Assembly: GCF_045037415.1 (NCBI RefSeq)
Contig: NZ_CP173440.1
DNA from: Escherichia coli
Lineage (GTDB): Bacteria > Pseudomonadota > Gammaproteobacteria > Enterobacterales > Enterobacteriaceae
DNA length: 64,000 nt
Strand: one strand, 5' to 3'
Below are positions 1,652 to 43,662 of this stretch, piece by piece. Below the pieces are notes generated by a model. It saw nothing but the letters and a program-made list of their open reading frames with translations. It was not told the origin of the DNA and did not search any database. A program made the position numbers and the translations under genes. The first letter of the stretch is position 1, and each line of letters begins with the position of its first letter.

Positions 1652-1999
1652 ATGAAAGGCTGGCTTTTTCTTGTTATCGCAATAGTTGGCGAAGTAATCG
1701 CAACATCCGCATTAAAATCTAGCGAGGGCTTTACTAAGCTTGCCCCTTCCGCCGTTGTCATAATCGGTTATGGCATCGCATTTTATTTTCTTTCTCTGGT
1801 TCTGAAATCCATCCCTGTCGGTGTTGCTTATGCAGTCTGGTCGGGACTCGGCGTCGTCATAATTACAGCCATTGCCTGGTTGCTTCATGGGCAAAAGCTT
1901 GATGCGTGGGGCTTTGTAGGTATGGGGCTCATAATTGCTGCCTTTTTGCTCGCCCGATCCCCATCGTGGAAGTCGCTGCGGAGGCCGACGCCATGGTGA
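1652..1999 (+). CDS. qacEdelta1: Truncated SMR quaternary-ammonium efflux protein QacEdelta1
   Basis: 115-aa product [27 protein letters not shown]...; standard 3'-CS position overlapping the sul1 start. Confidence 0.95.
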
Positions 2000-2832: not shown

Positions 2833-2959
2833 CATTCACCTTCCGGCCGCCCGCTAGCGGACCCTGGTCAGGTTCCGCGAAGGTGGGCGCAGACATGCTG
2901 GGCTCGTCAGGATCAAACTGCACTATGAGGCGGCGGTTCATACCGCGCCAGGGGAGCGA

Positions 2960-3136
2960 ATGGACAGCGAGGAGCCTCCGAACGTTCGGGTCGCCTGCTC
3001 GGGTGATATCGACGAGGTTGTGCGGCTGATGCACGACGCTGCGGCGTGGATGTCCGCCAAGGGAACGCCCGCCTGGGACGTCGCGCGGATCGACCGGACA
3101 TTCGCGGAGACCTTCGTCCTGAGATCCGAGCTCCTA
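2960..3136 (+). pseudogene. orf5: orf5 (GNAT acetyltransferase of the 3'-CS), truncated after ~58 codons at a Tn21-type IR
   Basis: MDSEEPPNVRVACSGDIDEVVRLMHDAAAWMSAKGTPAWDVARIDRTFAETFVLRSELL matches orf5, then the frame runs into IR and IS sequence. Confidence 0.7.
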
Positions 3137-3158
3137 GGGATCGCCTCAGAAAACGGAA
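3137..3158. repeat. Outer 22 bp of a Tn21-subfamily 38-bp terminal IR (gggatcgcctcagaaaacggaa), split by an IS insertion
   Basis: Together with 4486-4501 (aataaagcacgctaag) it reconstitutes a 38-bp IR, the known target of IS4321/IS5075. Confidence 0.8.
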
Positions 3159-4485
3159 TCTATGGTCACTCCCGTTTTTGCAACACCGATTTTGACGATA
3201 AATTGGCTTGCTTGAATCTATCCGGCGTCTGAATGGGATTTTATTCCCGCGCCTCGATGAGTTCCGCGCCTGATGAACCTCCAGAAAATATACGGCTTCA
3301 ATGAGCCTTTCCGTTTTACAGGTTCCTCAACAGGCCGGTGGGCCGTTAGTATCATCAATATCAGTATTCGCAAAACCAGATCAGTGATTCTTTAAACCGG
3401 TGTATTTCTGCCGTTATGCTACATAAGTTTGCTGTCGTGCCGTTAGGGCCCAGGCTATTCTGGCCAGCTTGTTTGCCAGAGCACAAGTGACGACAAAGTT
3501 GCTTTTCCTACACAGTAGATCCCTGACCCAATCGGCCAATTTGCCAGACTGGTGTTCCAGTTTTTGTATGAATACCCTGGCACATTGAACCAACAAAGTT
3601 CGGATCTTTTTGTTACCTCGCTTACTAATTCCCAGCAATGTCGTCCGACCTCCCGTGCTGTACTGTCGGGGTACCAGCCCTGTTGCCGCCGCAAAGTCAC
3701 GACTGCTGGCGTACTGCTTCCCGTCGCCAATCTCAGTTGAAATAGTACTCGCTGTCAGTGTTCCGACGCAGGGAATGCTCAGCAAGCGCTGTCCAATCTC
3801 ATCTTCGTCCAACTTTCGTTTCAACTGGGATTCCAAATCTTTAATCTGCTCAACAAGATAGTGATAATGCTGTTGTAATTTCAGCAATAACTGGCTGAGG
3901 TATAGAGGCAAACTATTGTCCTCAAGAAGGGTACTCAGTCGGCTAATAACGGCAGCTCCTCGTGGAACGCTGATGCCAAATTCCAGCAGAAAAGCATGCA
4001 TCTGATTGGTTGTTTTTACCTTATCCTGAACCAGGGATTCACGGACACGATGCAGCGCACGCATTGCCTGCTGAGATTCAGTTCTGGGCTGTACAAAACG
4101 CATAGACGGACGCGATGCAGCTTCACAAATAGCTTCGGCGTCGACAAAGTCGTTTTTGTTACTTTTAACGAATGGACGGACAAATTGTGGTGATATCAGC
4201 TTAGGAAAATGCCCCAACTCTTCCAACTTGCGTGCCATAAAGTGAGAGCCACCACAGGCTTCCATTGCGATGGTTGTAGCGGGGCATGTCGCCAAAAATT
4301 CGATTAACTTTGGCCGTGTAAATTTTTTACGGTAAACAGCCTTGCCGCGACGATCTTGGCAATGAATATGGAAAGAGTTTTTACCCAGATCGATACCAAT
4401 GAGCGCAATGTTTTCCATGATAGTTCTCCGAATGAAAGCCTATCCTCAGCATAGTACCGGGAAGGAGGGAGTGACCATCTCATTA
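3159..4485 (-). mobile_element. IS5075/IS4321-type element (IS110 family), complete, 1327 bp, inserted in a 38-bp IR
   Basis: Exactly 1327 bp between the two IR halves; contains a 334-aa IS110-family transposase. Confidence 0.85.
3414..4418 (-). CDS. IS110-family transposase (IS5075/IS4321)
   Basis: 334-aa product MENIALIGIDLGKNSFHIHCQDRRGKAVYRKKFTRPKLIEFL... Confidence 0.9.
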   Translation of the reverse strand: MENIALIGIDLGKNSFHIHCQDRRGKAVYRKKFTRPKLIEFLATCPATTIAMEACGGSHFMARKLEELGHFPKLISPQFVRPFVKSNKNDFVDAEAICEAASRPSMRFVQPRTESQQAMRALHRVRESLVQDKVKTTNQMHAFLLEFGISVPRGAAVISRLSTLLEDNSLPLYLSQLLLKLQQHYHYLVEQIKDLESQLKRKLDEDEIGQRLLSIPCVGTLTASTISTEIGDGKQYASSRDFAAATGLVPRQYSTGGRTTLLGISKRGNKKIRTLLVQCARVFIQKLEHQSGKLADWVRDLLCRKSNFVVTCALANKLARIAWALTARQQTYVA

Positions 4486-8235: not shown

Positions 8236-9473
8236 CAGTGTTCACCTTCTGTATGGGTTGGGGCGGAGGCTGTGGCTGCCGCCGCCATTGTAGCAAATTG
8301 AAGACGGAGCGAGAGTAGAGCCACGAGCCCCGCAAACACGGCCGATACAACGAGGCCAGGGAGCGGACCAGCAAGGTCGACAAACGCGCCGGCCGCAAGC
8401 ATAACCATGGGCGAGGCTGACAGCATCACCGCCGAGACCGTGCCGAGTACCCGGCCGAGAAGTTCTGGCGGCGTGCGGTTGTAGATGGCAGCGTTGAGAA
8501 TGGGAGAGACTGAGCCGGTCAGCAGTCCCACGAGCGCGCCCAACAACATCAGCACCGGCACGCCTGGCAACTGTGAAAGCAGAAGCGAGCCCACCGCAGA
8601 GCCACAAAATGCCACCGCCAGCCAGTTCTGCGCTGATATCCGGGCGCCGACCGACGCATGAATGGCAATGCCAAGGAGACCACCAGCCCCCATCATTGAG
8701 GAGAACAGCCCGAGCTCTGCTACTTGGCGTCCTGCATCTACAAACAGCGCAGGCATGATGACGCTGCCGTTGGCGCCAACGATGCCCACGAAGATCATCA
8801 CTATACCAAAGAGAGGGCGCAGCAGGGGTTCGCTCCAGAGAAAAGCGACGCCGGCGCGCATGGAGAGAGTCGCCGTCGTGGTCATCGTCCGAGCGGCACG
8901 CGCGGGAAGCACCCACGCGCCGAGCAGACCTGCAAGGACGGAGCAGAACGCCGTCAGCCCGAGCGTTGGCGCAGCGCCAAGCAGGCCGATTGCGGCCCCC
9001 CCAAGGGCCGGGCCACCTAGAATCGCGACGTTCCCGATCACCGCTTTCAGTGACGAGACGCGCTCAACGGAGAGCCCGGCGACGTGGCCGAGTTTGGGCA
9101 GCTCACTGTCCTGCGCGGCCATACCGGGTGCGTCGAACGCGGCACCGAGCACCACGCAAGCGATCAGCCCAGTGTTCGAGAGGGCGCCAACGGCATCGAG
9201 CAGTGGGATGCTCGCCATGGCCACGCCGCCCACCACACCCGAGATCAATGCGACGGGCGCGCGCCCGAACCGATCGACGAGGCCACCACCAACCCACGCG
9301 CCGATGATGGTCGCGATGACGCTGCTAGCGGCCGTGGCGCCCGCCCAGGCCGCGCTCTTTGTATGAGACAGGACGAACCATGGAAGCGCGAGGGCCGCCA
9401 CCGCGTTGCCGATCCGGAAGAGAAAGGTCGCCGCGAACAGCGTCGCGAGCGGGCTATATCGACGTTCGCTCAT
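8235..9473 (-). CDS. mrx: MFS membrane protein Mrx of the mph(A) operon
   Basis: 412-aa hydrophobic product between mph(A) and mphR(A). Confidence 0.9.
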   Translation of the reverse strand: MSERRYSPLATLFAATFLFRIGNAVAALALPWFVLSHTKSAAWAGATAASSVIATIIGAWVGGGLVDRFGRAPVALISGVVGGVAMASIPLLDAVGALSNTGLIACVVLGAAFDAPGMAAQDSELPKLGHVAGLSVERVSSLKAVIGNVAILGGPALGGAAIGLLGAAPTLGLTAFCSVLAGLLGAWVLPARAARTMTTTATLSMRAGVAFLWSEPLLRPLFGIVMIFVGIVGANGSVIMPALFVDAGRQVAELGLFSSMMGAGGLLGIAIHASVGARISAQNWLAVAFCGSAVGSLLLSQLPGVPVLMLLGALVGLLTGSVSPILNAAIYNRTPPELLGRVLGTVSAVMLSASPMVMLAAGAFVDLAGPLPGLVVSAVFAGLVALLSLRLQFATMAAAATASAPTHTEGEH

Positions 9474-10375
9474 TCCGCTGCGGCGAGCTGCGCCTTCGCC
9501 GCAGCGAGGTACTCTTCGTTACCCGAGTCGAGGGCGAAGAGTGCGTAGGTGACCGCCCCGAACGCAAGGCGCTCCGCGATGTGGTGGGCGAGCCGCGGCC
9601 ACACCCGGCCACCGGCCGCTTCATACGTGAGGAGGAGCTTCGCGAGCCCCTCTTCACCAAAGACCATAAGGTGCGCGGCCATGTCGATGGCAGGGTCATC
9701 AACGCGGGCCTCGCTCCAGTCGATCATCCCGCTGACGCGCTCCGTGTTGTCGATGAGCACATGGCCCACGTAGAGATCGCCATGCACCACCACGGAGAAA
9801 TCTGGCCACGACGAATCGTCGTCGAGCCAGCGCTGCCACCGGTGGAGGCGCTTGTCGTTCACCACGAACTCGCGTCGGACGCGGTCAACGTCGTCGGCCA
9901 CCTTCTGACGGGCCTGCGTCGGTGTACGGATGAGCATCCCCGCATCCACGGCGGCGGAAATGGGGACGGCATGCAGGGCGGCGAGCGCGGTCGCGAAGCT
10001 CTCCGCGAAGACCTCCGAGTCCTGCGGCACGACCCAGTCGGGCGTGGACGAACCAGGCTGGATGACCATCGCAGTCGAGTCTTCGAGCATGGGATAGGCA
10101 ACGAGCTCGGCGTTGGCCACGCGCCAGTCCGGCACCGCGAACGGCAGGCGATTCTTGAGCATTGCCAGCACCCGCGCCTCTGGTTCGACCTTCGCGCTTA
10201 CCTCGGCTCGGCGCGGGATGCGCAGCACCCACCGACGTCCATCGTCGACGGTGGCGATCACGATCCTATAGTCGAGCCCAAGCTCATTGACAGTCAGCGG
10301 GCCATGGAGCTTGAGCCCATGTCGGGCTGCAAGTGCGTACAGTTGGGAGGTATCGGCGGTCGTGACTACGGTCAT
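9470..10375 (-). CDS. mph(A): Macrolide 2'-phosphotransferase Mph(A)
   Basis: 301-aa product MTVVTTADTSQLYALAARHGLKLHGPLTVNELGLDYRIVIATVDDGRRWVLRIPRR... Confidence 0.95.
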   Translation of the reverse strand: MTVVTTADTSQLYALAARHGLKLHGPLTVNELGLDYRIVIATVDDGRRWVLRIPRRAEVSAKVEPEARVLAMLKNRLPFAVPDWRVANAELVAYPMLEDSTAMVIQPGSSTPDWVVPQDSEVFAESFATALAALHAVPISAAVDAGMLIRTPTQARQKVADDVDRVRREFVVNDKRLHRWQRWLDDDSSWPDFSVVVHGDLYVGHVLIDNTERVSGMIDWSEARVDDPAIDMAAHLMVFGEEGLAKLLLTYEAAGGRVWPRLAHHIAERLAFGAVTYALFALDSGNEEYLAAAKAQLAAAE

Positions 10376-10444
10376 GATTCACTCCTGAGGGCTTGACGGG
10401 TTTAGCCACCTAAATGTAACAGTCACGTCGGTTATATTCAATCC

Positions 10445-11264
10445 GGCACTGTTGCAAAGTTAGCGATGAGGCAGCCTTTTGTCTTATTCAAAGGCCTTAC
10501 ATTTCAAAAACTCTGCTTACCAGGCGCATTTCGCCCAGGGGATCACCATAATAAAATGCTGAGGCCTGGCCTTTGCGTAGTGCACGCATCACCTCAATAC
10601 CTTTGATGGTGGCGTAAGCCGTCTTCATGGATTTAAATCCCAGCGTGGCGCCGATTATCCGTTTCAGTTTGCCATGATCGCATTCAATCACGTTGTTCCG
10701 GTACTTAATCTGTCGGTGTTCAACGTCAGACGGGCACCGGCCTTCGCGTTTGAGCAGAGCAAGCGCGCGACCATAGGCGGGCGCTTTATCCGTGTTGATG
10801 AATCGCGGGATCTGCCACTTCTTCACGTTGTTGAGGATTTTACCCAGAAACCGGTATGCAGCTTTGCTGTTACGACGGGAGGAGAGATAAAAATCGACAG
10901 TGCGGCCCCGGCTGTCGACGGCCCGGTACAGATACGCCCAGCGGCCATTGACCTTCACGTAGGTTTCATCCATGTGCCACGGGCAAAGATCGGAAGGGTT
11001 ACGCCAGTACCAGCGCAGCCGTTTTTCCATTTCAGGCGCATAACGCTGAACCCAGCGGTAAATCGTGGAGTGATCGACATTCACTCCGCGTTCAGCCAGC
11101 ATCTCCTGCAGCTCACGGTAACTGATGCCGTATTTGCAGTACCAGCGTACGGCCCACAGAATGATGTCACGCTGAAAATGCCGGCCTTTGAATGGGTTCA
11201 TGTGCAGCTCCATCAGCAAAAGGGGATGATAAGTTTATCACCACCGACTATTTGCAACAGTGCC
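10445..11264 (-). mobile_element. IS26 copy 1 (820 bp, 14-bp IRs GGCACTGTTGCAAA)
   Basis: IRs at both ends; Tnp26 ORF inside. Confidence 0.95.
10497..11219 (-). CDS. tnp26: IS26 transposase Tnp26 (ORF-track frame; native 234-aa start is 6 codons downstream)
   Basis: [41 protein letters not shown]... Confidence 0.95.
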   Translation of the reverse strand: MLMELHMNPFKGRHFQRDIILWAVRWYCKYGISYRELQEMLAERGVNVDHSTIYRWVQRYAPEMEKRLRWYWRNPSDLCPWHMDETYVKVNGRWAYLYRAVDSRGRTVDFYLSSRRNSKAAYRFLGKILNNVKKWQIPRFINTDKAPAYGRALALLKREGRCPSDVEHRQIKYRNNVIECDHGKLKRIIGATLGFKSMKTAYATIKGIEVMRALRKGQASAFYYGDPLGEMRLVSRVFEM

Positions 11265-11330
11265 GATAAAAATATATCATCATGAACAATAAAACTGTCT
11301 GCTTACATAAACAGTAATACAAGGGGTGTT

Positions 11331-12146
11331 ATGAGCCATATTCAACGGGAAACGTCTTGCTCGAGGCCGCGATTAAATTCCAACATGGATGCTGATTTAT
11401 ATGGGTATAAATGGGCTCGCGATAATGTCGGGCAATCAGGTGCGACAATCTATCGATTGTATGGGAAGCCCGATGCGCCAGAGTTGTTTCTGAAACATGG
11501 CAAAGGTAGCGTTGCCAATGATGTTACAGATGAGATGGTCAGACTAAACTGGCTGACGGAATTTATGCCTCTTCCGACCATCAAGCATTTTATCCGTACT
11601 CCTGATGATGCATGGTTACTCACCACTGCGATCCCCGGGAAAACAGCATTCCAGGTATTAGAAGAATATCCTGATTCAGGTGAAAATATTGTTGATGCGC
11701 TGGCAGTGTTCCTGCGCCGGTTGCATTCGATTCCTGTTTGTAATTGTCCTTTTAACAGTGATCGCGTATTTCGTCTCGCTCAGGCGCAATCACGAATGAA
11801 TAACGGTTTGGTTGATGCGAGTGATTTTGATGACGAGCGTAATGGCTGGCCTGTTGAACAAGTCTGGAAAGAAATGCATAAGCTTTTGCCATTCTCACCG
11901 GATTCAGTCGTCACTCATGGTGATTTCTCACTTGATAACCTTATTTTTGACGAGGGGAAATTAATAGGTTGTATTGATGTTGGACGAGTCGGAATCGCAG
12001 ACCGATACCAGGATCTTGCCATCCTATGGAACTGCCTCGGTGAGTTTTCTCCTTCATTACAGAAACGGCTTTTTCAAAAATATGGTATTGATAATCCTGA
12101 TATGAATAAATTGCAGTTTCATTTGATGCTCGATGAGTTTTTCTAA
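11331..12146 (+). CDS. aph(3')-Ia: Aminoglycoside 3'-phosphotransferase APH(3')-Ia (kanamycin/neomycin resistance)
   Basis: 271-aa product MSHIQRETSCSRPRLNSNMDADLYGYKWARDNVGQSGATIYRLYGKPDAPELFLKHG... Confidence 0.95.
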   Translation: MSHIQRETSCSRPRLNSNMDADLYGYKWARDNVGQSGATIYRLYGKPDAPELFLKHGKGSVANDVTDEMVRLNWLTEFMPLPTIKHFIRTPDDAWLLTTAIPGKTAFQVLEEYPDSGENIVDALAVFLRRLHSIPVCNCPFNSDRVFRLAQAQSRMNNGLVDASDFDDERNGWPVEQVWKEMHKLLPFSPDSVVTHGDFSLDNLIFDEGKLIGCIDVGRVGIADRYQDLAILWNCLGEFSPSLQKRLFQKYGIDNPDMNKLQFHLMLDEFF

Positions 12147-12283: not shown

Positions 12284-13103
12284 GGCACTGTTGCAAAGTT
12301 AGCGATGAGGCAGCCTTTTGTCTTATTCAAAGGCCTTACATTTCAAAAACTCTGCTTACCAGGCGCATTTCGCCCAGGGGATCACCATAATAAAATGCTG
12401 AGGCCTGGCCTTTGCGTAGTGCACGCATCACCTCAATACCTTTGATGGTGGCGTAAGCCGTCTTCATGGATTTAAATCCCAGCGTGGCGCCGATTATCCG
12501 TTTCAGTTTGCCATGATCGCATTCAATCACGTTGTTCCGGTACTTAATCTGTCGGTGTTCAACGTCAGACGGGCACCGGCCTTCGCGTTTGAGCAGAGCA
12601 AGCGCGCGACCATAGGCGGGCGCTTTATCCGTGTTGATGAATCGCGGGATCTGCCACTTCTTCACGTTGTTGAGGATTTTACCCAGAAACCGGTATGCAG
12701 CTTTGCTGTTACGACGGGAGGAGAGATAAAAATCGACAGTGCGGCCCCGGCTGTCGACGGCCCGGTACAGATACGCCCAGCGGCCATTGACCTTCACGTA
12801 GGTTTCATCCATGTGCCACGGGCAAAGATCGGAAGGGTTACGCCAGTACCAGCGCAGCCGTTTTTCCATTTCAGGCGCATAACGCTGAACCCAGCGGTAA
12901 ATCGTGGAGTGATCGACATTCACTCCGCGTTCAGCCAGCATCTCCTGCAGCTCACGGTAACTGATGCCGTATTTGCAGTACCAGCGTACGGCCCACAGAA
13001 TGATGTCACGCTGAAAATGCCGGCCTTTGAATGGGTTCATGTGCAGCTCCATCAGCAAAAGGGGATGATAAGTTTATCACCACCGACTATTTGCAACAGT
13101 GCC
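12284..13103 (-). mobile_element. IS26 copy 2
   Basis: 820 bp with IRs; identical to copy 1. Confidence 0.95.
12336..13058 (-). CDS. tnp26: IS26 transposase Tnp26
   Basis: Identical 240-aa ORF-track product. Confidence 0.95.
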   Translation of the reverse strand: MLMELHMNPFKGRHFQRDIILWAVRWYCKYGISYRELQEMLAERGVNVDHSTIYRWVQRYAPEMEKRLRWYWRNPSDLCPWHMDETYVKVNGRWAYLYRAVDSRGRTVDFYLSSRRNSKAAYRFLGKILNNVKKWQIPRFINTDKAPAYGRALALLKREGRCPSDVEHRQIKYRNNVIECDHGKLKRIIGATLGFKSMKTAYATIKGIEVMRALRKGQASAFYYGDPLGEMRLVSRVFEM

Positions 13104-19621: not shown

Positions 19622-19864
19622 TTAAGCCACCTTGTTTTGTTGGGGTAGCTGATCATAGTAAAACTCATTTGGTGTCATTTTGTCTAGACTCGAATGAGGT
19701 CGTTTCAAATTATAAAACTCAAAATATGCACTTAATTGCTTTTTCGCATCTGTGACACTGCTATAAGCTTTGAGATACACCTCTTCATATTTAGGAGAGC
19801 ATGAAAAACCTCGGGGCAGCCATCGAATGATGCCATCTACAGGGGTTAAAATAACCACCATCAT
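19622..19864 (-). pseudogene. C-terminal fragment of an IS3-family transposase (ISAba14-like remnant)
   Basis: 80-aa ORF ending ...YFEFYNLKRPHSSLDKMTPNEFYYDQL, typical of an IS3 OrfB C-terminus; family assignment from context. Confidence 0.5.
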
Positions 19865-19886
19865 TTCATAACAATACCTGCTGACT

Positions 19887-20477
19887 ATGAAGATCTACGT
19901 CATCAAAATAGCAGTTCATGGAGTCAGTCCGATGGTCTGGCGTCGGCTGAGAATTGCTGCCGACACGTCACTGGCCGCGCTTCACTTCATTTTCCAGATA
20001 GTGCAGGGCTGGGGGGACGACCATCTCCATCAATTTCACATTTATGGCAAAGATTACGGTATCTCCTACGAAGGAGGCATCGGTTTTGTCGATAATCCGT
20101 TCCGGGTCGTGATTGATGATTTTGCTTTTGATGCTGGCGATCGCTTTACCTATGAATACAATTTCTTTGAGCACTGGCTTCATGACATTCGTGTTGAGGC
20201 CATTTATGAAAACTCTACGCTGAAAGCGCCGTTTTGTATAAGCGGCCATGGTATGCCCGGAGCCACAGCTGCGGATGAGTTCGATAAAACCCTGGCGTTT
20301 CTTGAAGCTATCGTTAATGCGGATGATGAAACAACGGTCGGCGAGATCCGCCCTTTTGCTGACGACCTGGATGCTGTCAGGTTCAACCGCCACAAAATCA
20401 ACCGGCAACTGAGCAGGCTCGACCTTGCATCTCCGGTACTGGAGCCTGAAGTTATCTGGCTGGGCCGTCGTCGCTGA
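19887..20477 (+). CDS. Hypothetical protein (pRiA4b ORF-3-like family), first ORF of the ISKpn19-like element
   Basis: 196-aa product MKIYVIKIAVHGVSPMVWRRLRIAADTSLAALHFIFQIVQGW... Confidence 0.45.
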   Translation: MKIYVIKIAVHGVSPMVWRRLRIAADTSLAALHFIFQIVQGWGDDHLHQFHIYGKDYGISYEGGIGFVDNPFRVVIDDFAFDAGDRFTYEYNFFEHWLHDIRVEAIYENSTLKAPFCISGHGMPGATAADEFDKTLAFLEAIVNADDETTVGEIRPFADDLDAVRFNRHKINRQLSRLDLASPVLEPEVIWLGRRR

Positions 20478-20613
20478 CTGATGTCTATAAAGGTATACGT
20501 TTTCAGCATGCCTCTCAGATCCCCGAAAAAATGTCTATAAACCTCCCTAAATCAGTGTTTATGGATTATTCTTTAAATCTCTATGATGTTTAAAGACCTT
20601 CCGGAGGTTTTGC

Positions 20614-21186
20614 GTGCAATATGCCTACATCAGGGTAAGCTCGGCCGATCAGAATACGGCCCGTCAGGAAGAGGCATTGTCAAAGGCGGGTTTTCAGCCT
20701 GATAAAATTTGTGTTGAGCATGCCAGCGCGAAGGACACAAACCGCCCGGGGTTACAGGAACTCCTGGGGCAATTACGCCCTGGTGATACGCTTCTGGTTC
20801 ATTCCATCGATCGCCTTTGCCGGAATATGTCGGATATGTGCGCTGTCACCACCCGGCTTCGTGACCAGGGCGTTACCCTTATTTTTCTGAAAGAGCAGCT
20901 GACGTTCAGCGCCGGCACAAACAATCCGATGCAGGAACTGCAGCTGCACATGATGTCGGCATTCAGCCAGTTTGAACGAGCCTTACTGAAGGAAAGGCAG
21001 GCCGACGGCATCGCCGCGAAAAAAGCACGGGGTGAAAAAACAGGGCGCCCCGGCGCCGATATCAAAAAGATCCAGGAAATTGACGCACTCAGAAGCAGAG
21101 GGGTCAGGCTCAGGATCGCCTGCGACCATGCGGGCCTTGGCGTTTCCACATATTATAAGCTTCGTCACCAGATGAACAACCAGTAG
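20614..21186 (+). CDS. Small serine recombinase (resolvase/invertase family) encoded inside the ISKpn19-like element
   Basis: N-terminal YIRVSSADQ serine-recombinase motif and C-terminal HTH. Confidence 0.6.
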   Translation: MQYAYIRVSSADQNTARQEEALSKAGFQPDKICVEHASAKDTNRPGLQELLGQLRPGDTLLVHSIDRLCRNMSDMCAVTTRLRDQGVTLIFLKEQLTFSAGTNNPMQELQLHMMSAFSQFERALLKERQADGIAAKKARGEKTGRPGADIKKIQEIDALRSRGVRLRIACDHAGLGVSTYYKLRHQMNNQ

Positions 21187-21219
21187 CCGGGAGATAGTCA
21201 TCCACCACAGCAGGAGGCA

Positions 21220-22614
21220 ATGATGCAACTGACGCTCCAGATAGTCATCACCGATGAATCAGGCTCCAGTCGAACGGAGGAACTGATGACAATCCAGAAA
21301 TCAGGGGAAACCCGGAACGACATCGGATTATCGGTGTCAGAATCCAAGCTGTTGCTGAATACGGTCCAGCAGTCGGTGGTCCAGCTGCAGGCAGACGAAT
21401 ATACTCAACACCATATCCGGTGCCCTCACTGCCTTGCTGCGCGCAGAATCAAAGGCAAACAGAAAATACGGTACCGGACGCTGTTTGGCGTTATTCCGGT
21501 ATCCGGGCTTCGGGTGTACCGGTGCCGTTGTGAAGAGAGTGATACAAAGACAGTCAGTTTGCTCAGCGACTGGGCCGGCGATTATTCTCACCCGGCACTG
21601 AAATATATTGAAACCCGCTGGGCCTCGATGATCTCCTATGAAATGACGACTCGTCTGCTGAAAGATATTCTGCCGGTGGGCCACAGCCTGAATGCCTCAA
21701 CGGTGAGGAATCATTTATGCCAGGTGGCGCAGCGTCTTGACGCTGAGGCTGAAGCTCATTCAGGTTTTCTTTCCGGCTGCCCCCGCGACTGGGGGAACCT
21801 GCCCAGGCCAGGAAAACCGCTTGTGGTGGGTATAGATGGTGGTTATGTTCGCGATCGGGATGACAAAAAGCGTAATTTTGAAATTATTGCCGGGAAGTCT
21901 TTTTCCGTTGGTGCGCCTGCTGACACCCGCCGCTTCGGTTTTGTTCAGAAGGATGACTGTCATCCGGAACGCAGGCTCATGACCCACCTTTCAGCGCAGG
22001 GAATGCAGGCCAACCAGCAGATATTTTTTCTGTCCGACGGCGCGGATAATCTCAGGGACCTCCAGTTCGGTATGTACCCTGAGTCAACGCATGTGCTGGA
22101 CTGGTTTCATATCACCATGAGGCTGAAGGTGCTCATGCAATATGCCCGGGGACTGCTGGTATCAGATCCAGAGGCGGGGAGTAAAGTTCTGGCACTGCTG
22201 GAAAGCATTAAACGATATCTCTGGCATGGCAATGTTGTCGCTGCGCTGGAACATATTGATAATTGCGTTATGTATTGCGATGACCCTGAACTCAGCTATC
22301 CTAGCCTGAAATCCCTGCAAAAACATCTGGATGAAATGTATACCTACATCCGGAATAATAAGATGATGATCCCAAACTACGGCGAAATGCGTCGGTACGG
22401 AGAGCCGGTATCAACCGCGTTTGTGGAATCCACGATCAATGAAGTGATCGCCAGACGAATGGCCAAAAAGCAGCAGATGCAGTGGAGCAGAAAAGGGGCT
22501 CATTATTTGTTACAGACCCGGACCGCCGTTTTGAATAACGAACTGCAGGATAAATTTGTCTGCTGGTATCCGGGTTTTCAAAGTGACGGGAAGGGACCAG
22601 CGATGGCAGCATAG
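21220..22614 (+). CDS. ISKra4-family transposase (ISKpn19-like)
   Basis: 464-aa product; assignment from recalled family features and the ISKpn19-tnpR fragment-qnrS1 context. Confidence 0.7.
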   Translation: MMQLTLQIVITDESGSSRTEELMTIQKSGETRNDIGLSVSESKLLLNTVQQSVVQLQADEYTQHHIRCPHCLAARRIKGKQKIRYRTLFGVIPVSGLRVYRCRCEESDTKTVSLLSDWAGDYSHPALKYIETRWASMISYEMTTRLLKDILPVGHSLNASTVRNHLCQVAQRLDAEAEAHSGFLSGCPRDWGNLPRPGKPLVVGIDGGYVRDRDDKKRNFEIIAGKSFSVGAPADTRRFGFVQKDDCHPERRLMTHLSAQGMQANQQIFFLSDGADNLRDLQFGMYPESTHVLDWFHITMRLKVLMQYARGLLVSDPEAGSKVLALLESIKRYLWHGNVVAALEHIDNCVMYCDDPELSYPSLKSLQKHLDEMYTYIRNNKMMIPNYGEMRRYGEPVSTAFVESTINEVIARRMAKKQQMQWSRKGAHYLLQTRTAVLNNELQDKFVCWYPGFQSDGKGPAMAA

Positions 22615-22616
22615 CT

Positions 22617-23075
22617 CACGCTGCCCCAATATTTTTTATGCTCTCGGTCGTATGGAAGCTGGACCGCCTCGGTCGTGATCTTCGTCATCTCATTAATACA
22701 GTGCACGACCTGACCGCGAGGGGGACCGGTCTGAAAGTGCTGACCGGTCACGGGGCGACTATCGACACAACAACGGCCGCTGGCAAGCTTGTCTTCGGTA
22801 TCTTTGCCGCACTGGCGGAGTTTGAGCGCGAACTGATTGCTGAAAGAACGACTGCAGGTCTGGCATCAGCAAGAGCCCGTGGGCGGAACGGCGGCCGACC
22901 TTATAAAATGACGCCAGTCAAACTGCGACTGGCAATGGCATCAATGGGACAATCAGAAACAAAGGTCAGTACGCTATGCCAGGAACTTGGGATAACCCGG
23001 CAAACTTTGTACAGGCATATTTCCCCTGTTGGTCAACTGCGGGCGGACGGGATCAAGCTGCTCAACCGTGGATAA
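22617..23075 (+). pseudogene. tnpR: Tn3-family resolvase TnpR, 5'-truncated (lacks the catalytic Ser region)
   Basis: Product starts at ...KLDRLGRDLRHLINTVHDL, about residue 60 of resolvases. Confidence 0.7.
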
Positions 23076-23393
23076 TTTGAACGGACGGAAAAATCTGGGG
23101 TTCCGGCGTAGTACCCCTATCACCTCCACATTTTTGCAACAGTGCCTTATAAATGGCAGCCTTATGTTTACTTGCCAAGATGGGCTACCATATGATGTTT
23201 TATACTGAGCAATATTAATATTATCTTTAATGGAAAAATTAAGCCCACTAAGTGACCCACTGCTATATGGCTCTATTGTGAAGACGCCTGAGGGTAAAAA
23301 TTTATACATGGTTGTCCCTATGTCTATTATTGCAAGGTTGACAATATTATTCGTTTTATAAATTTGAGCGTTTAAAATCACACATCAAAGCAA

Positions 23394-24050
23394 TTAGTCA
23401 GGATAAACAACAATACCCAGTGCTTCGAGAATCAGTTCTTGCTGCCAGGCTGCAATTTTGATACCTGATGTATCGACTTTGCGGGGATCTAAACCGTCGA
23501 GTTCGGCGTGGCATAAATTGGCACCCTGTAGGCTAAATTGCCCCCAGACATCTTCGGAAAAAACACCTCGACTTAAGTCTGACTCTTTCAGTGATGCACC
23601 CGCTAGGTTCGTTCCTATCCAGCGATTTTCAAACAACTCACATTTTTCTAAACAAACCCTCTCCATATTGGCATAGGAAAGATTACATCCAGAAATAAAT
23701 GCTGAGCAAAAGTACATACGATTACTCACTTGATGGGCAAAGTTTGTTCGGGAAAAGTTGGCACCTTTTAAATCACACGCACGGAACTCTATACCGTAGC
23801 AATTGGCATTACTGAAGTTTGCCATCGCAAGTTGGCATTGTTGGAAACTTGCATCACGAAGATCTGCGACATCAAAGTGGCAGCCTTCGATATCACCCTG
23901 TTCAATGAACTTGCAGTTGACGAATGTCGTATCACGCAAGTTAGCACGTCGAAAGTCGCTGCGAATGAATGTGCAAGCGGTGAAGGTGAGATCACTTAAG
24001 TCTTTATGTGAAAAGTTGTGGTGCCGATATGTATGATTGTAGGTTTCCAT
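23394..24050 (-). CDS. qnrS1: Quinolone-resistance pentapeptide-repeat protein QnrS1
   Basis: 218-aa product METYNHTYRHHNFSHKDLSDLTFTACTFIRSDFRRANLRDTTFVNCKF... Confidence 0.95.
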   Translation of the reverse strand: METYNHTYRHHNFSHKDLSDLTFTACTFIRSDFRRANLRDTTFVNCKFIEQGDIEGCHFDVADLRDASFQQCQLAMANFSNANCYGIEFRACDLKGANFSRTNFAHQVSNRMYFCSAFISGCNLSYANMERVCLEKCELFENRWIGTNLAGASLKESDLSRGVFSEDVWGQFSLQGANLCHAELDGLDPRKVDTSGIKIAAWQQELILEALGIVVYPD

Positions 24051-24417
24051 GAGTACTCCTTGTTGAAAGGAGGGCTAGACTACCATTATACATATGCCAA
24101 GACATTAAAATAAAAGCCTGTTACATCAACACATTACAACCCCTCAATTTACCTGTTTTAAGTGGTCAAATTGGCGCGTAGAGCGCCTATCGCTCTTGCA
24201 TTGGCACGCGGCCCTGTTGAAAAAAGTTATTCGCTTTAGATAGGGTTAGGAGAGCCGTGCTTCGCCGGTAAAAAATCGGACTATCCGACGCAGGGCGGAC
24301 TCATCGGCGGAGAAGCAAACTTTGACTATATCTCCCTACACTTGGAAGAGGGCTAGACTGGCCCCATAGATCACCAGACACTTCGACTCTCTTAAAATAA
24401 GAGGTAGTCTTGGAACT

Positions 24418-24813
24418 ATGTTTAATACCAGTCAGAACGATAAGATGGTTGAAGTGTTATCAGGACCTGAGCGGCGTCGGCGTCGTACACCGCAGGAAAA
24501 AATTGCCATTATTCAGCAGACTATGGAGCCCGGTATGACCGTGTCTCATGTCGCGCGCCTGCATGGCATCAATGCAAACCAGATATTCAAATGGCGCAAG
24601 CAATATTAAGACGGTTCACTGACGGCTGTTGCATCGGGCGAGGAAGTGGTGCCGGCCTCCGAACTCGCTGCCGCCAATAAGCAAATTCGCGAACTCCAGC
24701 GCCTTCTGGGCAAAAAGACGATGGAAGCCGAGATACTCAAAGAGGCCGTGGAGTTCGGCCGGGCAAAAAAATGGATTGCGCATGCGCCCTCGTTGCCTGG
24801 GAACGACGAATAA
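24418..24813 (+). pseudogene. orfA of an IS2-group (IS3-family) element with an in-frame TAA at 24607-24609
   Basis: Frame reads ...QIFKWRKQY[64 protein letters not shown], colinear with IS2 OrfA. Confidence 0.6.
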
Positions 24814-25469
24814 GCGACGTTTGCAGAAGTCTTGGCGTGTCGCGTGCGCAGTTGAGCATTCGGGTTCACCGGCCATCTGACTGACAGGATCGCAGACGGC
24901 AGCCCCGTTCTGACGATACCACCGTATTGTCCCGGATAAACATGGCGGTGGCTGACCTGCCGACGTATGGTTATCGCCGTGTGTGGGCGCTGCTGCGACG
25001 GGAGTCGGAGCGGGACGGCCTGCCTGTGGTTAATGCAAAGCGGGTGTATCGCATTATGAGAACGCATAATCTGCTTCTTGAACGTAAACCCGCTGATCCT
25101 TGCCGTAAGCGGGCCCATAAGGGGCGCGTAGCAGTAGCGGAAAGTAACCGGCGCTGGTGCTCAGATGGCTTTGAGTTCCGCTGTGATAATGGCGAAAAGC
25201 TGCGGGTGACCTTCGCGCAGGACTGCTGCGACAGGGAGATCATTGACTGGGCAGCGAGCACCGGAGGCTATGACAAAGAAACGGTGCAGGATGTCATGCT
25301 GGGTGCGGTGGAAAAACGCTTCGGAAGGCAGTTGCCAACAGTGCCGGCGTTCGCCCGGTTGCTGGGACTGGAGCCTTGTACGACAGCAGTGCGAAGCCCG
25401 GAAAGCAATGGCATAGCAGAAAGCTTCGTGATGACGATAAAACGGGACTACATCAGCATCAGGATTTTA
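24800..25469 (+). pseudogene. orfB of the IS2-group element, internally deleted and 3'-truncated where the Tn3 IR begins
   Basis: ORF-track product 24927-25478 matches IS2 InsD in blocks ([36 protein letters not shown]) with a gap and a premature end. Confidence 0.55.
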
Positions 25470-25507
25470 GGGGTCTGACGCTCAGTGGAACGAAAACTCA
25501 CGTTAAG
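25470..25507. repeat. Tn3-type 38-bp terminal inverted repeat (GGGGTCTGACGCTCAGTGGAACGAAAACTCACGTTAAG)
   Basis: Read directly; overlaps the tnpA stop as in Tn3/Tn2. Confidence 0.85.
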
Positions 25508-27709
25508 CAACGTTTTCTGCCTCTGACGCCTCTTTTAATGGTCTCAGATGTCCTTTGGTCACCAGTTCTGCCAGCGTGAAGGAATAATGGCCGAGCATAT
25601 TGATATGTCCGTGGCAAAGCGGGGAGAGGCGTGCGATATCTTCATCATTCAGTGTTTCACCCTGCGCCCGGAGATGATCCAGGGCTGCCTGCATATAAAT
25701 AGTGTTCCATAACACGACGGCGTTAGTGACCAGCCCCAGTGTGCCCAGTTGATCTTCCTGACCGTCGGTATATCGTTTTCTTATCTCACCTTTTTGACCG
25801 TGACAGATGGCTCTGGCAACGGCATGGCGACTTTCTCCCCGATTAAGCTGGGTCAGAATGCGCCGGCGGTAATCTTCATCATCAATATAATTAAGCAGAT
25901 ACAGCGTTTTGTTGATGCGCCCCACTTCAATGATTGCCTGAGTCAGTCCGGAAGGACGTTCACTTTTCAGCAATGAACGGACCAGCACTGAAACCTGTAC
26001 TTTGCCCAGCTTCAGGGAGCCAGCGGTCCGGATCATTTCGTCCCACTGAAGGACTATTTTTCGGGGATCTGATTGCCCTCTGGCAATATCATTCAGCACG
26101 CCATAGTCGGCATCATGGTCCATTCGCCAGAAAACCGAAGCACCGGCATCAGCCAGGCGTGGAGAAAACTGGTATCCCAGCAGCCAGAAAAGGCCAAAGA
26201 CAAGTTCGCTGGCACCTGCTGTATCGGTCATAATTTCGGTTGGATTCAGCCCGGTTCCTGTTCCAGAAGACCTTCCAGCACAAAGATAGAGTCCCTCAGC
26301 GTCCCCGGTATAACGATGCCATGAAAGCCGGAATACTGATCGGACACAAAGTTGTACCAGGTGATCCCTCTGTTATTACCAAAGTATTTGCGGTTCGGTC
26401 CGGCATTGATTGTTCTGACTGGCGTAACAAAGCGCATTCCATCTGCAGATGCCACTTCTCCTCCACCCCATATCTGTGCCAGTGGCAGCGTTGCCTGAAA
26501 ATCAACCAGTCTGGCATTAGCGCTGGTGATAGTTTCAGCCCGCAGATAGTTCGCTTTTGTCCAGTTCAGCCGGTGTCGGGTCAGTGCAGGAACATTTGAT
26601 CTGATCAGTGGTTCCAGACCGATATTGCAGGCTTCAGCCATCAGCACGGCGCTGATGCTGACGGGCAGATCATCAACTCTGGCACTGGCTTCACTAGCAT
26701 GGAAAAACTCATCAGCAAATCCGGTATGGGCGTTAATTTCGAGCAGCAACTCCGTTAAATCCACCGGAGGGAGTAGATCACTGATCATTTTGCTCAGTCG
26801 TTTCAGACTGTCCGGCTCATCAAGACTGGCGAGGGGAGAAATTGTCAACCGGGGCTTCGGGCCAGAAACATCGAGTTCGACAGCCTCATTTTCGCAAAGA
26901 CGTGCAGCAACCTGTCTGTAACGACTATCAAGCTGATGACCCAGAGATTTTATTGCTTCCTGCGGGTCTGTCGGGTGCCCCAAAGAACGATAAACCTTAA
27001 TCCGGTTTGCCTGCCAGTCAGCACCCTGTAGTAATCTTGCACGAGGATCTCCCCACCGGTTACTGCCGGTAACGTAGACATCCCTCCGCCTCAGACTATC
27101 CTGCAGTTTACTGAGAAAGCAGAGCGTGTATCCCCTGCGGGTGATATGTTTTTCCTTGTTAATCACCAGCCGTTTCCATGACCGACTGATAATTTCCGTT
27201 GGTGCGTCGTCAAAAAACTGCCGCCGTGAGCTGAACTCCCGGCTGAGGTAGTCACAGGCATTCAGAGTGGTAACCCCGGCAGGTGCGGATGAAAATTTAA
27301 CGGTATTCAGCAGATGGGGCAGGAAACGACGAACGCGCCCGTACTGCTCCACCATTTCTTCATGAAAATTATCGTCTGAGGGCCGGGCAATTTCACGGAC
27401 AAGCGTGATGATTTCAGCCAGCTTTTGCCTTGGGATGTAGCTGAACACCTCAGCACGAATCGATTCGTCCGGTGTTTCTTCTTTCAGCAGGTACGAACAT
27501 GCGCTGGCGAGCGCCAATGCAGATTTATCCAGATCCTTCAGCGAGCGGAGCCGTTTTTTCTGCCCAATCTTTCTGGCGTCACGGATGATAACGGCCAGCA
27601 TGGCGTCCAGAACGTCCAATGCATCATCCAGCGCCAGCGTTTCCCATGCAAGGACAAAGGCAACCAGAACCGCCATCCTTTTCTGCGGTGACATCCTGGC
27701 AATATTGAA
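25503..27709 (-). pseudogene. tnpA: Tn3/Tn2-type transposase tnpA, 5'-truncated by IS26 (first ~280 codons missing) with a frameshift near 26231-26246
   Basis: ORF-track products 26246-27694 and 25503-26231 are colinear with TnpA but in different frames; the reading frame runs up to the IS26 boundary. Confidence 0.85.
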
Positions 27710-28529
27710 GGCACTGTTGCAAAGTTAGCGATGAGGCAGCCTTTTGTCTTATTCAAAGGCCTTACATTTCAAAAACTCTGCTTACCAGGCGCATTTCGCC
27801 CAGGGGATCACCATAATAAAATGCTGAGGCCTGGCCTTTGCGTAGTGCACGCATCACCTCAATACCTTTGATGGTGGCGTAAGCCGTCTTCATGGATTTA
27901 AATCCCAGCGTGGCGTTGATTATCCGTTTCAGTTTGCCATGATCGCATTCAATCACGTTGTTCCGGTACTTAATCTGTCGGTGTTCAACGTCAGACGGGC
28001 ACCGGCCTTCGCGTTTGAGCAGAGCAAGCGCGCGACCATAGGCGGGCGCTTTATCCGTGTTGATGAATCGCGGGATCTGCCACTTCTTCACGTTGTTGAG
28101 GATTTTACCCAGAAACCGGTATGCAGCTTTGCTGTTACGACGGGAGGAGAGATAAAAATCGACAGTGCGGCCCCGGCTGTCGACGGCCAGGTACAGATAC
28201 GCCCAGCGGCCATTGACCTTCACGTAGGTTTCATCCATGTGCCACGGGCAAAGATCGGAAGGGTTACGCCAGTACCAGCGCAGCCGTTTTTCCATTTCAG
28301 GCGCATAACGCTGAACCCAGCGGTAAATCGTGGAGTGATCGACATTCACTCCGCGTTCAGCCAGCATCTCCTGCAGCTCACGGTAACTGATGCCGTATTT
28401 GCAGTACCAGCGTACGGCCCACAGAATGATGTCACGCTGAAAATGCCGGCCTTTGAATGGGTTCATGTGCAGCTCCATCAGCAAAAGGGGATGATAAGTT
28501 TATCACCACCGACTATTTGCAACAGTGCC
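27710..28529 (-). mobile_element. IS26 copy 3, variant encoding Tnp26 with G184N and R93L
   Basis: 820 bp with IRs; nucleotide differences from the other copies are cag vs ccg at ~28189 and tt vs cc at ~27916-27917. Confidence 0.95.
27762..28484 (-). CDS. tnp26: IS26-variant transposase (G184N, R93L in the 234-aa numbering)
   Basis: Product has AYLYLAVDS and KRIINATLGF where the other four copies have AYLYRAVDS and [10 protein letters not shown]. Confidence 0.9.
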   Translation of the reverse strand: MLMELHMNPFKGRHFQRDIILWAVRWYCKYGISYRELQEMLAERGVNVDHSTIYRWVQRYAPEMEKRLRWYWRNPSDLCPWHMDETYVKVNGRWAYLYLAVDSRGRTVDFYLSSRRNSKAAYRFLGKILNNVKKWQIPRFINTDKAPAYGRALALLKREGRCPSDVEHRQIKYRNNVIECDHGKLKRIINATLGFKSMKTAYATIKGIEVMRALRKGQASAFYYGDPLGEMRLVSRVFEM

Positions 28530-29284
28530 GTGTACATCGAAATACGGCTTATCAGGCGTTAAAAGATGCTTGCGATGACTTGTTTGCAAGACAATTCAGT
28601 TATCAGAGTCTTAGTGAAAAAGGTAACACTATTAATCACAAATCAAGATGGGTGAGCGAGGTGGCTTATATTGATAATGAAGCTGTCGTTAGACTTATTT
28701 TTGCCCCTGCTATTGTGCCTTTAATTACTAGGTTAGAAGAACAATTTACAAAGTATGAAATACAACAAATAAGTAATTTAACAAGTGCTTATGCTGTTCG
28801 TTTATATGAAATATTGATTGCATGGCGTAGTACTGGAAAAACGCCTCTCATAACTATGTATGATTTTAGACAAAAAATAGGTGTACTCGAGACTGAATAC
28901 AAACGAATGTATGATTTTAAAAAATATGTTTTAGACATTGCATTAAAACAAGTAAATGAACATACCGATATTATTGTCAAAGTTGAACAGCATAAAACAG
29001 GTAGATCTATTACTGGTTTTTCATTTAGCTTTAAACAGAAAAAATCAGCCACGCATTCAGTCGAATCTAAAAGAGATCCGAATACATTAGACCTCTTTTC
29101 AAAAATAACAGATAAACAACGCCATCTATTCGCCAACAAGCTCTCAGAGCTTCCTGAGATGAGTAAATATTCACAAGGCACAGAAAGCTATCAGCAGTTT
29201 GCTGTACGTATAGCTGCCATGCTGCAAGATGCAGAGAAATTTAAGGAATTACTTCCTTTACTCAGAAAATTAGGATTTCAATGA
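28530..29284 (+). pseudogene. Rep_3-family plasmid replication initiator, 5'-truncated by IS26 (Acinetobacter-type, as in Tn1548)
   Basis: C-terminal region ...LYEILIAWRSTGKTPLITMYDFRQKIGVLETEYKRMYDFKKYVLDIALKQVNEH...; low GC. Confidence 0.6.
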
Positions 29285-35952: not shown

Positions 35953-36772
35953 GGCACTGTTGCAAATAGTCGGTGGTGATAAACTTATCATCCCCTTTTG
36001 CTGATGGAGCTGCACATGAACCCATTCAAAGGCCGGCATTTTCAGCGTGACATCATTCTGTGGGCCGTACGCTGGTACTGCAAATACGGCATCAGTTACC
36101 GTGAGCTGCAGGAGATGCTGGCTGAACGCGGAGTGAATGTCGATCACTCCACGATTTACCGCTGGGTTCAGCGTTATGCGCCTGAAATGGAAAAACGGCT
36201 GCGCTGGTACTGGCGTAACCCTTCCGATCTTTGCCCGTGGCACATGGATGAAACCTACGTGAAGGTCAATGGCCGCTGGGCGTATCTGTACCGGGCCGTC
36301 GACAGCCGGGGCCGCACTGTCGATTTTTATCTCTCCTCCCGTCGTAACAGCAAAGCTGCATACCGGTTTCTGGGTAAAATCCTCAACAACGTGAAGAAGT
36401 GGCAGATCCCGCGATTCATCAACACGGATAAAGCGCCCGCCTATGGTCGCGCGCTTGCTCTGCTCAAACGCGAAGGCCGGTGCCCGTCTGACGTTGAACA
36501 CCGACAGATTAAGTACCGGAACAACGTGATTGAATGCGATCATGGCAAACTGAAACGGATAATCGGCGCCACGCTGGGATTTAAATCCATGAAGACGGCT
36601 TACGCCACCATCAAAGGTATTGAGGTGATGCGTGCACTACGCAAAGGCCAGGCCTCAGCATTTTATTATGGTGATCCCCTGGGCGAAATGCGCCTGGTAA
36701 GCAGAGTTTTTGAAATGTAAGGCCTTTGAATAAGACAAAAGGCTGCCTCATCGCTAACTTTGCAACAGTGCC
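35953..36772 (+). mobile_element. IS26 copy 4 (opposite orientation to copies 1-3 and 5)
   Basis: 820 bp with IRs. Confidence 0.95.
35998..36720 (+). CDS. tnp26: IS26 transposase Tnp26
   Basis: Identical to the copy 1 product. Confidence 0.95.
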   Translation: MLMELHMNPFKGRHFQRDIILWAVRWYCKYGISYRELQEMLAERGVNVDHSTIYRWVQRYAPEMEKRLRWYWRNPSDLCPWHMDETYVKVNGRWAYLYRAVDSRGRTVDFYLSSRRNSKAAYRFLGKILNNVKKWQIPRFINTDKAPAYGRALALLKREGRCPSDVEHRQIKYRNNVIECDHGKLKRIIGATLGFKSMKTAYATIKGIEVMRALRKGQASAFYYGDPLGEMRLVSRVFEM

Positions 36773-42842: not shown

Positions 42843-43662
42843 GGCACTGTTGCAAAGTTAGCGATGAGGCAGCCTTTTGTCTTATTCAAAGGCCTTACAT
42901 TTCAAAAACTCTGCTTACCAGGCGCATTTCGCCCAGGGGATCACCATAATAAAATGCTGAGGCCTGGCCTTTGCGTAGTGCACGCATCACCTCAATACCT
43001 TTGATGGTGGCGTAAGCCGTCTTCATGGATTTAAATCCCAGCGTGGCGCCGATTATCCGTTTCAGTTTGCCATGATCGCATTCAATCACGTTGTTCCGGT
43101 ACTTAATCTGTCGGTGTTCAACGTCAGACGGGCACCGGCCTTCGCGTTTGAGCAGAGCAAGCGCGCGACCATAGGCGGGCGCTTTATCCGTGTTGATGAA
43201 TCGCGGGATCTGCCACTTCTTCACGTTGTTGAGGATTTTACCCAGAAACCGGTATGCAGCTTTGCTGTTACGACGGGAGGAGAGATAAAAATCGACAGTG
43301 CGGCCCCGGCTGTCGACGGCCCGGTACAGATACGCCCAGCGGCCATTGACCTTCACGTAGGTTTCATCCATGTGCCACGGGCAAAGATCGGAAGGGTTAC
43401 GCCAGTACCAGCGCAGCCGTTTTTCCATTTCAGGCGCATAACGCTGAACCCAGCGGTAAATCGTGGAGTGATCGACATTCACTCCGCGTTCAGCCAGCAT
43501 CTCCTGCAGCTCACGGTAACTGATGCCGTATTTGCAGTACCAGCGTACGGCCCACAGAATGATGTCACGCTGAAAATGCCGGCCTTTGAATGGGTTCATG
43601 TGCAGCTCCATCAGCAAAAGGGGATGATAAGTTTATCACCACCGACTATTTGCAACAGTGCC
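42843..43662 (-). mobile_element. IS26 copy 5
   Basis: 820 bp with IRs. Confidence 0.95.
42895..43617 (-). CDS. tnp26: IS26 transposase Tnp26
   Basis: Identical to the copy 1 product. Confidence 0.95.

Follow-up and report, generated by a model that had tools for sequence, protein, structure and literature searches.

Downstream of the insertion sequence (IS) start that faces the plasmid quinolone-resistance gene qnrS1, a 64,000-nucleotide (nt) stretch of Escherichia coli DNA, here called the window, carries an IS remnant, the terminal inverted repeat (IR) and truncated transposase gene tnpA of a Tn3-type transposon, and a copy of IS26. We consider this arrangement, with a probability of roughly 90%, to be the standard and already described right-hand flank of the plasmid qnrS1 module, that is, a layered record of mobile elements in which no gene is functional here. 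The structure is already known, and accounts that differ slightly in wording have dealt with this nested mobile-element debris around the resistance gene from 2005-2007 onwards; the single defect that looks new, a frameshift in tnpA, comes down to one missing base that is found in the window sequence only. All coordinates are positions of the window, its layout was obtained from a scan for open reading frames (ORFs) and from direct reading of the sequence, and probe counts refer to the plasmid collection PLSDB. Pfam E-values for the elements of the stretch range from 1e-14 to 1e-83, and at least 80% of the 3.7-kb stretch is present in at least 456 PLSDB plasmids, with 100% identity among the matches listed; E-values this low and so many identical plasmid copies show that the elements are not chance resemblances. 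Over 27.6 kb the window is 99.989% identical, with three differing positions, to p51015_NDM_1 of Klebsiella pneumoniae, an IncFIB/IncHI1B plasmid carrying NDM-1, aph(3')-VI, qnrS1, mph(E)/msr(E), armA, and sul2.

The remnant beside qnrS1 has the organisation of an IS3-family member, namely two partly overlapping ORFs, orfA encoding a helix-turn-helix (HTH) domain and orfB encoding the rve/DDE (Asp-Asp-Glu) core in the -1 frame, together with an unbroken run of seven adenines, the programmed -1 frameshift site, which is the same in intact relatives that the Prokaryotic Genome Annotation Pipeline (PGAP) models with a programmed frameshift. Its left inverted repeat (IRL), beginning TAGACTGGCCCC, is present at 24354, exactly 303 bp from the qnrS1 ATG, and an alternative orfA start, homologous to IS2 InsC, lies at 24445. 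The original prediction, made by a model from the sequence alone, had let the element start at 24418, which holds for orfA only, the IS itself beginning further upstream with the IRL. In published work the distance of ISEcl2 upstream of the start of qnrS1 is 303 bp, and a primer pair is given for which the product measures 1113 bp (PMC9044524); these primers span 23351-24463 in the window, 1113 bp exactly as published. The qnrS1-linked element is named ISEcl2 or delta-ISEcl2 in the literature, where plasmids of Enterobacteriaceae are said to carry delta-ISEcl2-qnrS1-delta-tnpR-ISKpn19 as a "widely found" core platform (PMC5027574, PMC5034289). In all probability the remnant is this published delta-ISEcl2, of the IS3 family and the IS2 group.

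Membership in the IS2 group had been predicted and was confirmed by alignment to IS2. Compared with a bona fide 1331-bp IS2 from an E. coli chromosome, flanked by the target site duplication (TSD) ATGGG, the remnant shows 68.5% nt identity over 1104 aligned positions, IS2 copies found by blastn in 5,426 E. coli genomes are approximately 70% identical to it, and its OrfB has approximately 66% amino acid (aa) identity to IS2 InsD. Copies of the same IS are generally expected to agree at the isoform level, with a cut-off of approximately 95% nt identity. IS2 itself was rejected as the identity of the remnant, which at 68.5% represents a separate IS and not a decayed IS2. What is shared with IS2 is the family and group, the HTH of orfA and the DDE core of orfB, the -1 frameshift site in an A-run, the first letters of the IRL and, in the intact relatives of ISEcl2, the 5-bp TSDs; what differs is the identity of the DNA and of OrfB. 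The nearest intact relatives are approximately 95-96% identical at the nt level, 1333 bp long and equipped with both IRs and 5-bp TSDs (AAATG at locus L007, ATTTG at locus L003). The L007 copy (positions 1937-3269, approximately 95% nt identity) sits in proQ of the Salmonella chromosome GCA_001409155.1, and the protein cluster of its OrfAB occurs on 189 contigs; the IS lineage therefore has active copies in settings other than that of qnrS1. The window copy retains the IRL only, without paired terminal IRs and a 5-bp TSD, and the DDE triad of its OrfB is not intact, which makes it a defective IS3-family member.

Four lesions account for this state. The in-frame stop that had been read in orfA is present as a GAA to TAA change at 24607-24609, with GAA in the intact relatives (L002, L003, L005, and L007), and a second nonsense codon, missed by the original prediction, lies in orfB, where the TGG of the intact relatives has become TGA at 24882-24884. 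The predicted internal deletion of orfB was recovered as well: mapped by means of the proteins P0001 and P0033 and of DNA alignments, it removes a net 51 bp in frame at 25341|25342 next to two substitutions, is equivalent to positions 986-1036 of IS2, and replaces ESLEWLTDNGSAYRAHETR by VP, whereby the second Asp (...TDNG...) of the DDE triad is lost. Finally, homology to the IS ends at 25461 (orfB ends ...RDYISI), so that the last approximately 174 bp including the right inverted repeat (IRR), IS2 positions 1157-1331, are absent. Relative to the nearest intact relative, 22 codon differences are synonymous and eight non-synonymous including the two stops; since they are mostly synonymous, the divergence is mainly that of an ordinary IS lineage, and the decay proper consists of a handful of events. 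The RefSeq annotation of the IS gene already reads "frameshifted; internal stop; incomplete". The same IS copy is truncated in a third and different way in protein cluster P0021 (20 member sequences), in which the decayed ISEcl2 orfB is five codons longer (…ISIMPKPD) and fused in frame to a GGDEF-domain sequence.

The relative age of these lesions can be read from plasmids in which the IS is longer. Window positions 23300-25461 are 100.000% identical over 2.16 kb to pEC27-2 of Enterobacter cloacae (blaLAP-2 type), and in that plasmid the IS, with the TAA, the TGA, and the 51-bp deletion, runs on to its complete right end beside blaLAP-2, with a total of 1282 bp. This complete right end is contained in 417 PLSDB records, and the same full-length arrangement of the blaLAP-2 type was found on a metagenome scaffold. 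The blaLAP-2-ISEcl2-qnrS1 unit (Poirel-type; the HF545433 unit that PMC6735626 cites) thus shares the IS with the window up to 25461, all three internal lesions included, and differs in that it keeps the last 174 bp and the IRR, where the window copy is truncated. Because the lesions are identical in the full-length copy, the two stops and the deletion are older than the truncation, and all three are old and fixed in both major qnrS1 lineages; for them the "old" of the original prediction is appropriate. The perfect conservation over 2.16 kb between distant plasmids, and the constant distance of the remnant, always 303 bp from the qnrS1 start (PMC9044524), might also suggest that the remnant is kept for qnrS1, as a promoter or regulatory sequence or through a 63-aa HTH peptide from the truncated orfA. 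We regard such a retained function as very improbable, as a hitch-hiking segment of recent common origin is equally expected to be perfectly conserved, the IS points away from qnrS1 with 303 bp of non-IS DNA between them, and other qnrS1 contexts have delta-ISKpn19 in place of delta-ISEcl2 (PMC5034289).

How the remnant came to end where it does is the point on which the original prediction and the present analysis differ most. It would be possible to argue that insertion of the Tn3-type transposon cut orfB of ISEcl2, that the frameshift and the IS26 truncation of tnpA are old decay, and that the qnrS1 segment is an immobilised fossil: the transposon IR follows the last position of IS homology at a distance of only 8 bp, the window tnpA has a frameshift, IS26 abuts this gene, and the IS lesions are a fixed feature of every copy seen. 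This account is highly unlikely and is already contradicted on three of its four points. The predicted 38-bp Tn3-type IR is indeed present, but orfB does not end at it, as had been claimed; the IS homology stops 8 bp earlier and these 8 bp, GGATTTTA, are non-IS, their last 5 bp being TTTTA, the TSD of the transposon. The origin of the 8 bp can be followed in three IncX1 plasmids. In pTET_A3_4 (L016) the site is empty and reads ...GGGGGGATTTTATGGGTGTT... within a hypothetical gene (L016 2501-2508). In NZ_CP104542 (L019) the Tn3-type transposon occupies it with the TSD TTTTA and without qnrS1 (L019 6520-6527). In NZ_CP020341 (L011) a complete 4949-bp transposon with the 38-bp IR GGGGTCTGACGCTCAGTGGAACGAAAACTCACGTTAAG at both ends lies between TTTTA copies, and the block ISKpn19-delta-tnpR-qnrS1-delta-ISEcl2 adjoins directly on its left, flanked by an 8-bp direct repeat of GGATTTTA at 3362-3369 and 9038-9045. 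Both L011 and L019 have TTTTA on both sides of the transposon, and the left copy is kept in the window at 25465-25469. In IncX1 plasmids the block with the 8-bp flanking repeat measures 5.67 kb, from the IRL of ISKpn19 to the truncated ISEcl2 end, and 530 PLSDB plasmids contain the junction of IS end, 8 bp, and IR. An IncX1 plasmid with the qnrS1 unit and without the transposon was searched for, and none was found. The GGATTTTA in the window thus represents a relic of an IncX1 backbone gene, and since the 8 bp match this backbone and the transposon has a clean TTTTA TSD there with or without the qnrS1 unit, the transposon most probably did not cut orfB; the IS was presumably truncated earlier or by whatever moved the block.

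Since the block has the 8-bp flanking repeat and its right end is the very truncation point found at 25461 in the window, one conceivable way in which it may have moved as a unit is a one-ended transposition of ISKpn19 that used a non-IR sequence as surrogate end, in the manner of ISEcp1. We consider this mechanism improbable. A comparison by eye of the right end of the block with the IRR of ISKpn19 gave matches at approximately 5 of 20 positions, and thus no support for a surrogate end. Tn6396, a published ISKpn19 composite transposon, has 7-bp repeats (PMC6735626). If the block did move in this way, the "truncation" of ISEcl2 would be the footprint of the event that mobilised qnrS1.

Beyond the IR, the transposase gene is a remnant of tnpA. 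With one C restored, the segment is identical at 2208 of 2208 nt to the 3' part of the intact 1001-codon tnpA of pX14-3-tetA, in which this tnpA adjoins the same IS remnant, and its intactness there speaks further against the fossil account. The DDE_Tnp_Tn3 domain is recognised in both pieces (E=3e-55 and 2e-83), but only residues 267-1001 are encoded and the frame is broken, so that it is a remnant and not a functional member of the Tn3 family; 266 codons are missing, not the approximately 280 estimated originally. The tnpR gene, res, blaTEM, and the second IR are absent from the window copy, where IS26 takes their place, and are present in the sister copies L011 and L018. The resolvase of the complete L011 copy (MRLFGY...LDLQV) differs in three N-terminal residues from the Tn3 resolvase in the PDB, which points to Tn2/Tn1 and not canonical Tn3 for the sister copy, the window itself keeping no tnpR. 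The L011 tnpA (9079-12085 of NZ_CP020341.1, a Shigella IncX1 plasmid) has a frameshift of its own near the 3' end, with the C-terminus ...DIARLSRFATDISICS... instead of ...DIARLSPLCHGH..., unrelated to the deletion in the window.

That deletion, a frameshift that the original prediction had correctly recognised, is the loss of one C between 26255 and 26256 (GGTCTCC to GGTTCC, approximately codon 751), which splits tnpA into two ORFs. With a 70-bp probe spanning this position, 4,875 PLSDB records were matched; the extra C is present in all 4,865 full-length matches and the deletion in none, and two records alone reach at least 99% identity, both as partial matches. The deletion is likewise absent from p51015_NDM_1 and from pX14-3-tetA. 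Its absence from every full-length match and from the near-identical sister plasmids means that it gives no evidence of age, so for this lesion the predicted "old" was not supported. The frameshift is private to the window sequence, being either a recent mutation or an assembly error, and it is without consequence because tnpA was already truncated. We see even odds that it is a sequencing or assembly error and not a real mutation. An error is suggested by its being shared with no full-length match and by its being one of only three differences from p51015_NDM_1 in 27.6 kb, the others being a single-nucleotide polymorphism (A/G) at 21309 and a change from A9 to A8 at 42613, a length change typical of long-read consensus errors; conversely, the deletion site is no homopolymer, and a truncated pseudogene is free to gather real mutations. 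The polymorphism at 21309 falls inside the ISKpn19 transposase gene, and the homopolymer change at 42613 may be a sign that the source assembly still contains some consensus errors.

The end of tnpA at IS26, which starts at 27710, was predicted correctly, and the element at 27710-28529 is a complete IS26 of 820 bp with 14-bp IRs (GGCACTGTTGCAAA) and a single tnp26. An 8-bp target duplication is absent, and the flanking sequences, ATATTGAA and GTGTACAT, differ. Unequal flanks are expected of IS26 where junctions arise from cointegration, deletion, or recombination. Among the five IS26 copies of the window (10445-11264, 12284-13103, 27710-28529, 35953-36772, and 42843-43662) no pair of 8-bp flanks indicating simple insertion or inversion was found. 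A probe of 27+27 bp across the IS26|tnpA junction matched 134 PLSDB plasmids exactly, some of them without qnrS1. In pNDM-MAR the identity covers IS26, tnpA, and the IR (window 25468-28532) and gives way there to mer DNA, and in an IncF E. coli plasmid with the junction identity ends inside tnpA. Plasmids of the pNDM-MAR type (IncFIB/IncHI1B) thus resemble the window in the breakpoint after tnpA codon 266 and the identical tnpA up to the IR; pNDM-MAR differs in the mer module, instead of delta-ISEcl2-qnrS1, beyond the IR and in its canonical IS26. The window copy that abuts tnpA is, alone among the five, a variant with three nt differences from the other four and the substitutions R93L and G184N in Tnp26; an IS26 variant with three nt changes and G184N is known as IS26-v1 (PMC9412624). 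The same variant stands at the same position in p51015_NDM_1. The occurrence of the junction in other contexts such as the mer region of pNDM-MAR argues that the IS26 truncation of tnpA is a circulating junction and not a specific feature of the qnrS1 segment; the original prediction had taken it as a mark of that segment.

All elements that the original prediction named were recovered at or close to the coordinates it gave, and its interpretation was supported in part. The description of the segment as immobilised did not hold either: it is present in hundreds of plasmids (more than 500 for the module) of many genera, and in the window it lies beside an ISKpn19 with unbroken transposase ORF and terminal IRs and between IS26 copies. 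The qnrS1 module still moves by way of its neighbours, that is, IS26, ISKpn19, and homologous recombination, and not by ISEcl2 or the Tn3-type element. With the core qnrS1 platform and its Tn6292/Tn6396 derivatives (PMC5027574, PMC5034289, PMC6735626) the window shares the gene order, the IS remnant 303 bp upstream of qnrS1, ISKpn19 and the truncated resolvase on the other side, and the amplicon size. The difference from Tn6292 lies beyond the remnant, where Tn6292 continues with IS26-orf198-IRR, whereas the window has 8 bp of IncX1 DNA, the Tn2/3-type IR, delta-tnpA, and then IS26. The pINF5-type plasmids, as far as they are described where PMC4876607 cites them, have a disrupted IS2-like element, Tn3, and IS26 around qnrS1, and within the same limits the contexts of pINF5, pAH0376, and pK245 are like the window in that an IS2-like element, disrupted and lying upstream of qnrS1, abuts the tnpA end of a Tn3-type transposon. 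These contexts keep the whole transposon (tnpA-tnpR-blaTEM-1, e.g., L011 and L018); in the window copy, tnpA codons 1-266, tnpR, and bla have been lost to IS26.

Taken together, the findings are compatible with a history in four steps. A copy of ISEcl2 would first have come to lie 303 bp upstream of qnrS1 and would have been killed by two nonsense mutations and the 51-bp deletion. In one lineage, the block from the left IR of ISKpn19 to the inside of ISEcl2 orfB would then have been joined to an IncX1 plasmid gene, adjoining the IR of a blaTEM transposon (Tn2/Tn3-type) whose earlier insertion into that gene had duplicated TTTTA, whereby GGATTTTA was left between the IS end and the IR. In a third step IS26 would have cut the tnpA of the transposon after codon 266, giving the junction that circulates on many plasmids and that probably met the qnrS1 segment by recombination within the shared tnpA, in an IncFIB/IncHI1B Klebsiella plasmid of the pNDM-MAR type. 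The single-base tnpA deletion, unique to the window, would be the last step, a very recent mutation if it is not an assembly error. Several points weigh against this reading. The name ISEcl2 is based on later papers, the 303-bp position, and the 1113-bp amplicon. The order in which block and transposon were joined is deduced from three extant plasmids, and a precise loss of the unit could also give the transposon-only state. The 8-bp direct repeat surrounds a unit that does not end on the right in an IS terminus. Recombination in tnpA is deduced from the shared junctions as their simplest reading, and the 1-bp deletion is as likely an assembly error as a real change.

Table 1. Features of the qnrS1 flank, with window positions and the basis of each assignment.
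Feature	Positions	Strand	Basis
qnrS1	23394-24050	minus	ORF; Pfam pentapeptide repeats
Spacer, 303 bp	24051-24353		qnrS1 ATG to IRL of the IS remnant
delta-ISEcl2, 1108-bp remnant, IS3 family/IS2 group (probable)	24354-25461	+	Aligned with intact relatives and with the full-length copy linked to qnrS1
orfA, HTH_Tnp_1	24418-24813	+	Pfam PF01527, E=1e-14
A7 slippery run between orfA and orfB	24765-24771	+	Direct reading; frames join there
orfB, HTH_21 and rve DDE core	24772-25461	+	Pfam PF13276, PF00665; frame translation
Spacer, 8 bp, GGATTTTA	25462-25469	no strand	Relic of an IncX1 backbone gene
Terminal IR, 38 bp, Tn1/Tn2/Tn3 group, tnpA end	25470-25507	+	Exact match to GGGGTCTGACGCTCAGTGGAACGAAAACTCACGTTAAG
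delta-tnpA, TnpA residues 267-1001, two ORFs	25503-27709	minus	Pfam DDE_Tnp_Tn3, both pieces
IS26, 820 bp, 14-bp IRs	27710-28529	minus	PF13610 / DDE_Tnp_IS240

On the other side of qnrS1, ISKpn19 extends over 19794-22646 with its transposase ORF (464 aa) and terminal IRs unbroken. The IRs are imperfect and 26-27 nt long (19794-19821 and 22620-22646), and besides the transposase there are a pRiA4b ORF-3-like gene and one that resembles a resolvase gene within the element. A tnpR of the Tn3 family, with its remnant at 22647-23075, is interrupted by ISKpn19, whose flanks in the window (CATATTTA on the left, GTGGTATG on the right) show no matching target duplication. Approximately 30 bp at 23117-23146 (TATCACCTCCACATTTTTGCAACAGTGCC), located between this tnpR remnant and the qnrS1 3' end, terminate in an exact 14-bp IS26 terminal repeat (IS26 end TATCACCACCGACTATTTGCAACAGTGCC) and look like the solo end of an IS26 relative. 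Furthermore, a 12-bp direct repeat, GAGGGCTAGACT, is found at 24070-24081, just upstream of the qnrS1 ribosome-binding region, and again at 24348-24359, where it starts in flanking DNA and reaches 6 bp into the ISEcl2 IRL. As a vestigial second IS end the repeat is marginal, with a local alignment score of 24 against a shuffle mean of 15.8 (standard deviation 2.1, maximum 25, 300 shuffles).

For the understanding of the qnrS1 region as such the stretch matters little, as it is textbook-type nested debris around a resistance gene. The analysis flags in the source assembly a probable single-base error, or else a private mutation. Lineages can be marked by the exact breakpoints, namely the 51-bp deletion, the additional TGA in orfB, the 8-bp relic from IncX1, and codon 267 of tnpA, and the relic shows that the qnrS1 segment of this Klebsiella IncFIB/IncHI1B NDM-1 plasmid had earlier passed through an IncX1 plasmid.

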